DNA of 63,819 bases, the filler included, from an uncultured archaeon (GTDB lineage: Archaea > Iainarchaeota > Iainarchaeia > Iainarchaeales > 1-14-0-10-31-34), in the NCBI GenBank assembly GCA_964442255.1. It is 9 parts of 9 records of this genome, joined end to end, with 100 filler letters (N's around TTAATTAATTAA, not from the genome) between each part and the next. Parts side by side here need not be neighbours in the genome. Positions count along the whole stretch, not along the records: positions 20,343 to 27,515 come from CAYTYC010000036.1; positions 27,616 to 34,475 come from CAYTYC010000038.1; 7 more parts are not named here. One strand, written 5' to 3'. The position numbers were made by a program. Below, one piece after another: positions 27,001-30,000 of this stretch (the first letter of the stretch is position 1; each line of letters begins with the position of its first letter).

Positions 27001-30000
27001 GCTCTTCGGAAGAGGACTGCGACGACGGAATATGGGAGAGCCGGGAGGAATGCATTGAAGGTGAATGCAGGCACAGGCTTGCGACATGCGAAGAGTTTGA
27101 AGGGGAAGTGTGCACCGAAGGAACGGAATGCGATTCAACTCCCTTAAGGGCTTTTGACACCGCCTTCTGCTGCACAACCCAGTGCATTCCACTGGAAGAA
27201 GACTTATGTGAAGGGGTAAAATGCGGGAAAGGAATGAGGTGCATGGAAGGGGCGTGCATTCCCGCAGAAAGCTAATTTTTTTTCAAATTAACCAGTAAGC
27301 ATGACGTCCTCCCCGCACTGAAGTGCGGGGTTTCCCAAATGTGGACGTCAATTCCCCGCCAACAGCGAAGCCGCATAGCGTAAGCCACTTGCCGAAGGCA
27401 ATTTTTTGGCCAAACTTTTTTTTTCAAAAAGTTTGTTTTGATGAAACTTTTTTGAAAAGTTTCTCCGCCGAAGGCGGCCCTTTTTGATCAAACTTTTTGG
27501 AAAAAAGTTTGTTTTNNNNNNNNNNNNNNNNNNNNNNNNNNNNNNNNNNNNNNNNNNNNTTAATTAATTAANNNNNNNNNNNNNNNNNNNNNNNNNNNNN
27601 NNNNNNNNNNNNNNNCGAGATCTACACTCTTTCCCTACACGACGCTCTTCCGATCTGGAAATTTGGTGGTGACAAACCGCTGCGATTTGAGCTGCTGGTA
27701 CTGCTTTTTTTTCGCAAAAGAAGGCGACCCAATTTACGAGCCCTCCCTCGCGCAGATAAGGAAAATGCTGCGAAATTTAAGGAAAGAAAAGCCGATTGCA
27801 AGCAACGCAATCCAGCTGACGGGAGGGGAGCCGACTTTGCGCGAGGATTTAACGGAAATAATACGGGTTGCGAAAGAAGAAGGGTTTGACCACGTGCAAT
27901 TAAATACGGACGGAATAAACCTGGCATTCAAAGAAGGGCTGGTGAAAAAAGTCAGGAAAGCAGGGGTCAACACTTTGTACCTGAGCTTTGACGGAACAAC
28001 CCCAAAAACAAACCCAAAAAACCATTGGGAGGTGCCGTTTGTTTTTGAAAACTGCAGGAAAGCAAATATGGGCGCTGTCCTGGTGCCGACAGTGATAAAA
28101 GGAATCAATGACCACGATTTAGGCAACATACTGAACTTCGGGTTAAACCACCTGGACATTGTCAGGGCGGTCAACTTTCAGCCGGTTTCATTGGTGGGAA
28201 GGATGCCGAGAAAGGAAAGGGAAAAACGCAGGATAACAATTCCCGGAACACTGAAAAAAATAGAGGAACAGACCCGCGGGCTGATTGCAATGGAAGACTT
28301 TTACGTCATCCCCTGCATAACTCCGTTCACGGATTTTGTGGAGGCCTTCACCGGAAAACCGAAATACGATTTGTCCACGCACTTCGCGTGCGGGGCGGCA
28401 ACATACATTTACATGGACGGAAAAACCCCCACGCCAATCACAAGGTTCATTGACTTTGAGGGATTGAGGGAATTCCTTTCAGAAAAAACGCGTGAGCTAA
28501 AGGAAGGAAAGCACAAGGCATGGGTTGGAAGCAAAATGCTGTTCAAAATAGGAAGTTTTTTAGACAAAGAAAAGCAGCCAAAGGGCCTGAATTTGGCGAA
28601 CATTTTATTCAACACAATAGTTAAGCACAACTACAGGGCAATAGGGGAACTGCACCACAAGACGATGTTCGCTGGACTGATGCACTTCCAGGACAAATAC
28701 AATTATGATGTGGAACGCGTGGAAAGATGCGACATACACTATGTGATGCCTGACGGAAGAATAATTCCATTTTGTGCGTTCAACGTAATTCCGGAAATTT
28801 ACAGGGACAAGGTGCAGGCACAGTACAGCATTCCGCAGGAAGAGTGGAGCAAAAAAACAGGGAAAACCCTTTTGGAGGGAAAGTACAGGAGAAAAACAAA
28901 AGAACTTGAGTCCAGCCCAGTTTACGGGAAAATTTATGATACGGTGAATTACTTTGAATGAGCCCTTCAGGGAAATACAGAAAAAAGAGTACTCCGTCAG
29001 GGGATTGAAGTCAGAGAACGATGCAGCATTCCTCCAGTACAGGCTGTCGCTTCTTGATTCGGTCATTCGGGCGCATGTCGGCTTTGGGGAAGGAAAAGCC
29101 TTTGTGCTTTTTTCAGGCGAAGAAAAAGAAATCAAAAAAATCCTCGGGGAAAATGCAAAAGAGTTAAAAGGAGTTAAAACACAGTATTCTGATCTGGTGG
29201 AAAAAAGTTTCAGCAAATGAGGTGAAAAAAAAGTGGAGGAATCAATCCAGTTTGTGGCGAACTGCAGGGGATGGGTTTCAGTCAGGAAATTAAAGGTGAC
29301 GGAAGCTACTGACCCCCGCACAGTGCTGGAGTTTCTGGCGTCCCTTAACACGGGAATTGACCGCAAGGTGGAGGAGTATTTGGGAAAAATCGTGGATTTG
29401 GCTCCGCTGGATTCCGCATTAACTGATGTTTTGGGCGACTCCGGAAAAACTCCCGGGGAGGCGATAAAAGCGGTGAACAGTTTGCAGGTGAACAAAGCAG
29501 TGAATGAATTGGCTGAAGGGCTGGAGAAGCTGCAGAAAGGGGAAAAAAAAGAGGTCTCCGAGTTTTTGAAGGTTTACGCAATGCGGAAAGCGCTGAAGGA
29601 AAAGAAGATTAGGGTGGATTACTCGGAAATAGCGGTTCCGGGAATGAAAAAAGTGAAGAAAACAAAGGTTTAAATTTTCCTTAAACTTATTTTTTTGGAT
29701 GGCAAAAGAAATATTCAAGGAAAGGGTTGGCCCCGGAAACCTGCGCGTCGGGGTAAAGGCGGGAAAAAAAATTCCCCCAAGACGGGCAATTGAATTCAAC
29801 TTGTACAGCAAATTCCACGGGCACGAGTACGTGATAAGGGGCAAAGAACTGTTTGAATTAAAGGGCGGAAGGCTTTCCATTGTGGAGGACGCGGCAGACG
29901 CGAGAATTGCGTTAACTAACGCTAAATGGAGTCAAAAGTCTTCCCTGGACAAAACCAAAATGAAGTGAAAATTGAATGGCTTCGGAAATTGAACTGGTTC

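Follow-up and report, generated by a model that had tools for sequence, protein, structure and literature searches.

A tetraether lipid synthase gene of an Iainarchaeales archaeon: evidence for a native origin and for a probable partner gene

Described Tes enzymes and the Iainarchaeales locus

Among tetraether lipid synthases (Tes, GDGT-MAS), the closest system of solved structure is MJ0619 (PDB 7TOL/7TOM; family model NF045702). A second described type is that of the Thermococcales, represented by TK2145, in which Tes is accompanied by DUF3213 (PF1455, PDB 2F40). In their available text, PMC11214058 and a preprint name TK2145 as Tes and report Gms homologues in DPANN archaea, and PMC6393311 gives tk2145 as required at 93 C. 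Tes in DPANN MAGs has also been recorded (Zeng et al. 2022, PMC8941075), an observation of the same class as ours; the accessible text calls it unexpected and possibly host-derived, and the name Diapherotrites was not found in the text or searchable supplements, in which the labels Aenigmarchaeota and Micrarchaeota are present. One Diapherotrites protein is already named Tes by NCBI. Finally, the DPANN-affiliated “Candidatus Altiarchaeum” has its own tes, and environmental GDGT-0 is attributed to it in the available part of bioRxiv 10.64898/2026.01.06.697877, where no mention of Iainarchaeota, DUF3213 or regulation was found; it belongs to another phylum than our organism, and the lipid evidence lies there. 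The available portions of PMC11868695, PMC13159169 and PMC13473441 do not treat the nativeness of Iainarchaeota Tes, and our literature search, in which subscription journals are thinly covered, found no published test of it. Thus, the enzyme is a known one in a lineage where it had been seen but doubted; we find its nativeness well supported. Beyond PMC8941075, nativeness is tested here through synteny, phylogenetic congruence and pathway nesting.

The window analyzed is a stretch of 63,819 nucleotides, filler included, made of contigs of one Iainarchaeales genome chained by N spacers (below, G000 is this genome, other G-numbers are further genomes of the survey and f-numbers their families). 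Contig C38, at positions 27616-34475, opens with the 3′ part of tes (Table 1), and the N-terminal ~105 profile positions were found at C4:1-330, outside the window. As the earlier note had proposed, the gene is cut between the ends of C4 and C38, which hold 54 identical bases; joined, the two pieces give a single, intein-free 538-aa frame. The join is drawn from this overlap and not from reads and, judged by sequence, the locus is a real native tes split over two contigs. The sequencing runs listed comprise two DNA entries of a single study and no RNA entry. The first 41 bases of C38 have no match in C4 or elsewhere in the genome, and presumably resemble an Illumina adapter. A start at 27618, as given before, thus includes 13 foreign codons. 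Against NF045702 (cut-off, 450), the segment 27657-28958 scores 575.5 bits, in line with the ∼576 noted earlier, and the TrsS model gives 261 on the window piece, below its own cut-off of 490.

Table 1 Features of the tes locus (positions in the window, or on contig C4 where so marked)
Feature	Position	Strand	Description
Foreign stretch, 41 bases at C38 start	27616..27656	+	Adapter-like assembly artefact, outside tes
tes 3′ part, 434 codons	27657..28961	+	Tetraether lipid synthase (GDGT-MAS): radical SAM core and C-terminal cluster domain
Exact 54-base overlap with C4 end	27657..27710	+	Identical bases in both contigs
Distant DUF3213 homologue, 88 aa	28954..29220	+	Start overlaps tes stop; proposed Tes-binding subunit
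DUF2666 protein	29233..29673	+	Conserved Iainarchaeota tes neighbour; 71% identity to same-family G112
PAP2-family membrane phosphatase	29976..30836	+	Conserved tes neighbour
Dispersed repeat, about 140 bp	30993..31139	.	Common to C38 and 9 other bin contigs
Divergent wHTH regulator	C4:425-901	divergent from tes	Outside window; GbsR/CudC-like
Putative operator, palindrome	C4:382	before tes	Outside window; one of 19 loose matches in genome

All 16 of the cofactor and active-site residues checked are intact, in the rubredoxin, N-cluster, radical SAM and C-terminal sites. The rubredoxin motif CX2CX20CX2H and the N-terminal [4Fe-4S] ligands (three Cys and one His) lie on the C4 piece, outside the window, and are followed by the radical SAM motif CX3CX2C; these and other Tes motifs were taken from the available text of PMC9433317. 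The C-terminal cluster region holds the equivalents of Met439 and Tyr459, on a numbering that presumes an inferred 20-residue offset in the PDB chain, and conservation suggests which Cys residues there would bind the cluster. Across 51 Iainarchaeota Tes rows, the departures are truncated rows, a Tyr-to-Phe change in G127 and four f26 copies without rubredoxin and without one N-cluster Cys. The sole PDB relative of the window protein at E ≤ 1e-10 is GDGT-MAS 7tol (E = 3e-108), on which a model of the G106 orthologue (63% identical) superposes with TM-scores of 0.83/0.92, the next match reaching 0.31. The enzyme is, with high probability, catalytically a Tes.

The resemblance to MJ0619 thus extends over score, rubredoxin, N-cluster, radical SAM and C-cluster residues, the Met439 and Tyr459 equivalents and fold, whereas our gene, known from its sequence, differs in its DPANN host, a longer loop before the N-cluster, a longer C-terminal tail, the coupled DUF3213 gene and the wHTH regulator. 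With the Thermococcales type it shares both the clade and the tes-DUF3213 pair, at 55% identity to the Tes of a named Thermococcus record; in contrast, its DUF3213 protein is too distant for the Pfam cut-off, unlike that of Thermococcus, and no regulator link was seen at Thermococcus-class tes loci, unlike those of DPANN. The reading that best accounts for the whole, held with moderate confidence, is that the DPANN cell carries its own intact tes in a small lipid module, which would consist of a divergent GbsR/CudC-like regulator, a palindromic operator, tes and the coupled DUF3213 gene.

A probable DUF3213 partner and a putative divergent regulator

The 88-aa protein encoded behind tes gave no Pfam match (PF11491 cut-off, 27 bits), and its orthologues, which can be aligned with it, scored 20.1 and 17.3 bits, under that cut-off. 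In the named Thermococcus record, the same place is taken by a full DUF3213 gene. A profile built from eight DPANN rows and one Thermococcus row recovers nine more Thermococcus-class copies, and a profile with Thermococcus-class rows in it matches 2f40 with E = 9.5e-19; the first Atlas match for the partner was DUF3213 at 0.87, which is a lead only. The window protein is classed as a distant DUF3213 homologue, not a member by Pfam score.

Confident DUF3213 genes lie directly behind tes in 41/41 cases found in the genomes searched: 16 of 151 Iainarchaeota genomes (E < 1e-19), 1 of 121 in the phylum of an Aenigmatarchaeota-titled record and 24 of 41 in the class of the Thermococcus record. In the Iainarchaeota set, five weaker matches (E > 1e-5), all in ∼730-aa frames, are probably HMA domains and were excluded. 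All 26 DUF3213-linked Tes belong to a single clade of 37 rows (SH-aLRT, 95). Its remaining 11 rows have no visible gene context, and the 10 Thermococcus-class Tes rows nest inside it. A spacer of 45 to 46 residues before the N-cluster is seen in each of the 13 Iainarchaeota Tes with a partner that were measured; of 150 other Tes loci, two have it, both at contig ends. By a different anchor, the spacer is 40 to 41 residues in Thermococcus-class Tes.

The complex was modelled on the G106 proteins rather than the window pair, with alignments made for this analysis. It scores 0.91, and the best of three controls 0.00. Among solved complexes 116 of 157 reach the mark used, among mismatched pairs 2 of 215, and this mark is roughly applicable here; runs agree in ≥74% of contacts, with a partner pLDDT of ≥85. 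The predicted interface sets DUF3213 residues 23-46 and 83-94, including the invariant Q30 and near-invariant Y31, against Tes residues 82-99 and 477-502, and the longer loop before the N-cluster falls within it. In the PDB, Tes and DUF3213 were each found alone only, and a full-text search (DUF3213, PF11491, TK2144-TK2146), in which TK2145 alone gave matches, found no published link between them. Gene linkage and the model together suggest that DUF3213 probably binds Tes, in a complex that is a prediction. As an accessory subunit, it would dock on the N-terminal [4Fe-4S] domain, and cluster shielding or electron supply may be guessed as its role.

The alternative is that DUF3213 is a neighbour that travelled with tes without acting with the enzyme. 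The linked copies all come from one Tes clade, so the 41 pairs are not 41 independent events; small HMA-like folds are common; and DUF3213 is not generally needed, because most Tes, including the solved one, are without it. This passive association is nevertheless unlikely, although it keeps some weight: DUF3213 never occurs away from tes in the genomes searched, the pair has been retained while Thermococcus-class and DPANN copies of DUF3213 have come to share about 20% identity, and the longer loop that marks every partner-bearing Iainarchaeota Tes measured lies in the modelled interface.

As to the regulator, the wHTH proteins score 33, 27 and 27 bits against NF047500 (cut-off, 218), and the family is therefore described as winged-helix proteins that appear to resemble GbsR/CudC below the family cut-off. 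The wHTH gene faces away from tes in 37 of the 39 locus records that hold both (some are duplicates); in the Aenigmatarchaeota-labelled phylum, 25 of 37 loci have it close to tes. The palindrome ACTTTT-N10-AAAAGT, with one mismatch allowed, occurs at 32 of 39 regulator-linked tes loci and at 4 of 132 others (shuffle mean, 0.29), counts that are optimistic because the pattern was drawn from the regions in which it was counted. On the gene linkage, the regulator would control tes via this operator, and that it acts on tes is reasonably likely. The probable DUF3213 subunit, common to Thermococcus-class Tes, and the DPANN regulator and operator are what the locus probably adds to the known enzyme.

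A wider and tentative proposal, for which the odds are somewhat against us, is that Thermococcales-type Tes is a two-subunit enzyme, with DUF3213 docked at the N-terminal iron-sulfur domain. The pair would be common to, and possibly derived from, DPANN archaea, among whose sampled copies those of the Thermococcus class nest. At least one-third of Iainarchaeota and more than half of the Aenigmatarchaeota-labelled phylum may then produce GDGT of their own, with a regulator devoted to it and, in the Iainarchaeales, with no known source of glycerol-1-phosphate.

Lipid pathway and predicted product

The earlier note credited the genome with the mevalonate, GGGP, DGGGP, CarS and GGR steps. G000 encodes thiolase, HMGS, HMGR, mevalonate kinase and UbiD/UbiX in one cluster (the mevalonate steps past the kinase were checked in part), and GGGPS, CarS and two GGR-family genes are over cut-off, together with a polyprenyl synthase and a CDP-alcohol transferase. 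The exception is DGGGP synthase, for which there is a candidate, a UbiA protein with DGGGPS models as its best families, under the cut-off (183 versus 296). Four other Tes genomes have the same lipid-pathway families. Across the 151 genomes of the phylum, GGGPS is found in 131, the lipid-type reductase in 73 and Tes in 45. By hand tally, GGGPS is present in 45/45 Tes genomes, and the reductase in 41/45 against 32/106 of the others, kin among them not being independent; this nesting fits an enzyme that needs saturated chains.

G1PDH was not found in G000 (93.8% complete) by profile or tblastn, nor were GpsA and GlpK, which bears out the absence of G1PDH and GpsA reported earlier and leaves a gap at the first step of de novo synthesis. 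Among the 151 genomes, G1PDH-like genes occur only in f26 (6/6), beside GGGPS; the other matches checked were DHQ-synthase-like or Fe-ADH. An Fe-ADH on the small contig C46 was rejected as a substitute, being a generic alcohol dehydrogenase. The available part of PMC12892359 places the loss of G1PDH in an ancestor of this group. The salvage enzyme GDPD is in one of five genomes checked, not in G000, and searches on archaeol kinase and lipid salvage gave nothing relevant among the matches listed. The glycerophosphate backbone would thus be acquired externally or made by an enzyme not recognised so far.

By analogy with the M. jannaschii enzyme, Tes would couple saturated phytanyl chains at their terminal carbons by means of two radicals derived from SAM; the predicted products are GDGT-0, which spans the membrane, and GTGT or macrocyclic archaeol. 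A Tes homologue does not prove GDGT: in the accessible text of PMC8941075, haloarchaeal homologues yield none and MA_1114 gave macrocyclic archaeol only, in traces. Production of GDGT by these archaea is inferred from sequence, and we consider it fairly likely that GDGT or a macrocyclic lipid is made in vivo.

Two other uses of a native enzyme compete with this account. The first, partly compatible with it, is lipid remodelling: the cell would scavenge archaeol or glycerophosphate from its host or the environment, and Tes would cross-link diethers, with the reductase and PAP2, or act on the host membrane. The restriction of G1PDH-like genes to f26, the missing GpsA and GlpK, the reported ancestral loss and the PAP2 gene beside tes, whose substrate is plausibly a lipid phosphate, all speak for it. 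Conversely, GGGPS is kept in 131/151 genomes and the mevalonate enzymes, CarS and reductase are kept in G000, which argues for lipid building by the cell itself with only glycerophosphate needed, and the scarcity of GDPD points the same way; remodelling as the main role is improbable. Slightly less probable again is a Tes-family enzyme with macrocyclic archaeol as its main product, or a different lipid cross-link, the outcome perhaps depending on DUF3213. Tes homologues vary in output, as the MA_1114 case illustrates, and reverse gyrase is absent from G000 and present in 1 of 45 Tes genomes, so that no heat pressure is evident. Against this, every ligand is kept, and the enzyme belongs to the same clade as Thermococcus-class Tes; T. 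kodakarensis makes GDGT according to the available text of PMC11214058, TK2145 itself being outside our tree. The preferred reading remains a GDGT-forming Tes in the cell's own lipid module, at the confidence given above.

Separately, a cysteine desulfurase and an anaerobic ribonucleotide reductase with its activase are encoded in the window; their annotations show iron-sulfur and radical SAM support in the cell. Seven other radical SAM proteins of G000 sit in glycosylation clusters, and none reached a named lipid-modifying family among the models used, which did not include dedicated Grs/Gms/Gmm models.

Distribution and origin of tes

Tes exceeds the NF045702 cut-off in 45 of 151 phylum genomes; the earlier count was 21 of 61. 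By hand tally, it is present in 12/12 genomes of f6, 11/13 of f13, 11/26 of f7 and 3/7 of the query's own family; it was not found in f4 (0/20), f5 (0/15) or f9 (0/17), whose searched genomes are 79 to 99% complete. In the Aenigmatarchaeota-labelled phylum, two overlapping draws gave 54/101 and 67/121. Tes is thus patchy in Iainarchaeales, commoner in that phylum and not special to the order. The statement that it matches in nine of nine members of one family is weak as worded, because at its threshold (E ≤ 0.001) all 14 control genomes, including E. coli, match too; over the cut-off, one family, f6, is covered completely. Tes as a trait of the whole order is too simple a view, given the three families without it, the rejection of the order's main Tes as one clade, the unrelated Tes that G112 has at the same locus and the higher frequency in the Aenigmatarchaeota-labelled phylum. 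Heat adaptation as the reason for tes is not supported, reverse gyrase being in 9/151 genomes and 1/45 Tes genomes.

Mapped onto a tree of 51 Iainarchaeota Tes rows, the genus assignments require 26 changes, where 25 is the minimum and shuffled labels average 41.5; for families the count is 15, against a minimum of 11 and 32.5 after shuffling. One order-wide clade, in which 20 main-type Iainarchaeales Tes were held together among 67 rows, was rejected (p-AU = 1.2e-6), the divergent copies having been excluded beforehand and the group picked after the trees were viewed. The Tes of f6, f13 and main f7 each form a well-supported clade, placed with different outside groups, and the copies of G112 and G127 and the second copy of G031 form a distant clade near euryarchaeal Tes. 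The divergent G112 gene adjoins the same DUF2666 and PAP2 genes as the query locus, which suggests replacement in place. The query Tes is unstable: it groups with Aenigmatarchaeota-phylum rows (support, 82), is unresolved, or joins the Iainarchaeales DUF3213 group (85), and placing it together with the copy of same-family G003 is not rejected (P = 0.25). That G003 copy is the protein with the Diapherotrites label at NCBI, and sequences from records titled “Ca. Iainarchaeum” lie among rows of the same order, which fits the Iainarchaeales assignment. These trees have no outgroup root, their named references are the best 80 of 602 loci listed, and one is a quick tree. On this evidence, descent of tes would have been vertical within genera and families, with losses in several families and, between lineages, exchange or replacement at the same locus; the query copy is a member of a Tes subfamily found also in Thermococcus-class genomes.

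The earlier claim that DUF2666 and PAP2 recur beside Tes in relatives is confirmed. At the 51 Iainarchaeota tes loci, many of them interrupted by contig ends, DUF2666 is found at 17, PAP2 and wHTH at 14 each, DUF116 at 10 and YkgJ-like genes at 8, and neighbours of the query locus recur in families f1, f7, f12, f13, f21, f23 and f24. DUF2666, PAP2, DUF116 and YkgJ-like genes were found at none of 74 named other tes loci and none of 37 loci of the Aenigmatarchaeota-labelled phylum, where the flanks mostly span 1.5 kb only. The G106 gene order, regulator facing away and then tes-DUF3213-DUF2666-PAP2, matches the query, and in G003, the copy described before as near rpoB, tes lies ∼2 kb before genes 76 to 84% identical to the G000 RNA-polymerase cluster. 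An 89-aa ORF at 29699-29968 is probably not a gene (no family, no homologue at tes loci).

Composition and repeats agree with the genome. Tetranucleotide values stand at the 59th percentile for tes to PAP2 and the 73rd for the C4 end, GC3 is 0.56 (median, 0.54), and the codon index is at the 65th percentile; a Tes-only value at the 6th percentile compares 1.3 kb with 5-kb pieces. C38 is tied to the genome because its dispersed repeat is common to nine other bin contigs, and C4 repeats are common to up to 20. Genome contamination is 0.23%, as stated previously. The closest named non-DPANN Tes is 62% identical to the query.

Contamination, the gene or both contigs having been binned in from a host or community archaeon (as raised by Zeng et al. 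2022), could draw on the position of tes at contig ends with an adapter-like artefact, on the loose grouping of the query with G003 and on the lack of one clade for the order, and is very improbable in view of neighbours of Iainarchaeota type and repeats spread through the bin, which both contigs carry, the fitting composition, the union with G003 that is not rejected, genus-level congruence over 51 rows that host contamination would not produce, orthologues on contigs of 270 to 946 kb and the G003 link to the RNA-polymerase cluster, which approaches tes and Iainarchaeota markers on one sequence. Synteny, genus-level congruence, composition, bin-wide repeats and the DPANN-type regulator and operator thus sustain the earlier view that tes is native to the DPANN cell, which we consider very likely.

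These findings address whether DPANN copies of Tes are host contamination, a question left open when Tes was described. Should the gene be both native and active, GDGT-0, on which environmental and palaeoclimate studies draw, could also stem from small archaea of sediments and the subsurface, which would then appear less dependent on a host for their membranes. The missing G1PDH points to an unrecognised source of the backbone. Finally, the link to Tes is the first functional hypothesis for DUF3213, an uncharacterised family with a solved structure, and this protein may matter for heterologous GDGT production.

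Divergent and extended Tes copies

Iainarchaeales hold a second, euryarchaeal-like clade of the tetraether lipid synthase Tes, with copies in three relatives' genomes (G112, G031 and G127). The copy in G112 sits in the usual DUF2666/PAP2 locus. That in G031 is a second Tes copy of its genome; two unknown ORFs come directly after it, then a UbiA gene. In three genomes of the Aenigmatarchaeota-labelled phylum, Tes frames of 970 to 1,110 aa give split matches and probably contain an intein, in which they resemble five Thermococcus-class Tes copies. The record L079 is titled Micrarchaeota; its phylum draw is identical to that of an Aenigmatarchaeota record, and the label is probably outdated.

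Locations of the features discussed
Feature	Location	Score
Second-clade Tes, G112	L040:6872-8356	
Second-clade Tes, G031	L053:7032-8498	
Second-clade Tes, G127	L067:6279-7802	
Long Tes frames	G177:C11, G240:C26, G258:C42	
Family f26 Tes	L071-L074 (G017, G062, G045, G117)	399-411 bits
GGGPS/G1PDH pathway observation, genome under study (G000)	C3, C5, C7, C15, C21 (L218-L223)	
Radical SAM genes, G000	C2, C10, C37 (L226-L229)	
Type IV pilus-like cluster	window 2615-8951	
Toxin-antitoxin-type genes	window 31466-34367 (C38)	
A/T-rich dispersed repeats	window 27301-27515, 30993-31139, 54156-54351	
310-aa Cys-rich ORF	window 26343-27275	
888-aa ORF	window 60839-63505	

Other genes and repeats

The pilus-like cluster comprises an intein-bearing T2SSE ATPase, two T2SSF genes and a prepilin peptidase. 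Small toxin-antitoxin-type genes (RHH, PIN, UPF0175 and HicA) form a run on the contig carrying the tes 3' part, and neither the 888-aa nor the 310-aa ORF has a Pfam family. Glycosylation clusters of the genome under study contain seven radical SAM genes of the B12-binding or SPASM/Twitch type; none reaches a family cut-off. Several families of A/T-rich dispersed repeats (100 to 200 bp) are frequent at contig ends and probably fragmented the assembly.

Lipid pathway across families

Iainarchaeales lack G1PDH, although GGGPS is retained in nearly all families, and neither GpsA nor GlpK was found in the Iainarchaeales genomes tested. Lipid reductase is also missing in families f4 and f9, whose diethers may therefore be unsaturated. 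The four f26 Tes copies have long branches and lack both the rubredoxin motif and one Cys of the N-terminal [4Fe-4S] cluster; their genomes encode reverse gyrase and a G1PDH-GGGPS pair. These genes point to hyperthermophily in this DPANN family, whose pathway seems complete and whose Tes is stripped.
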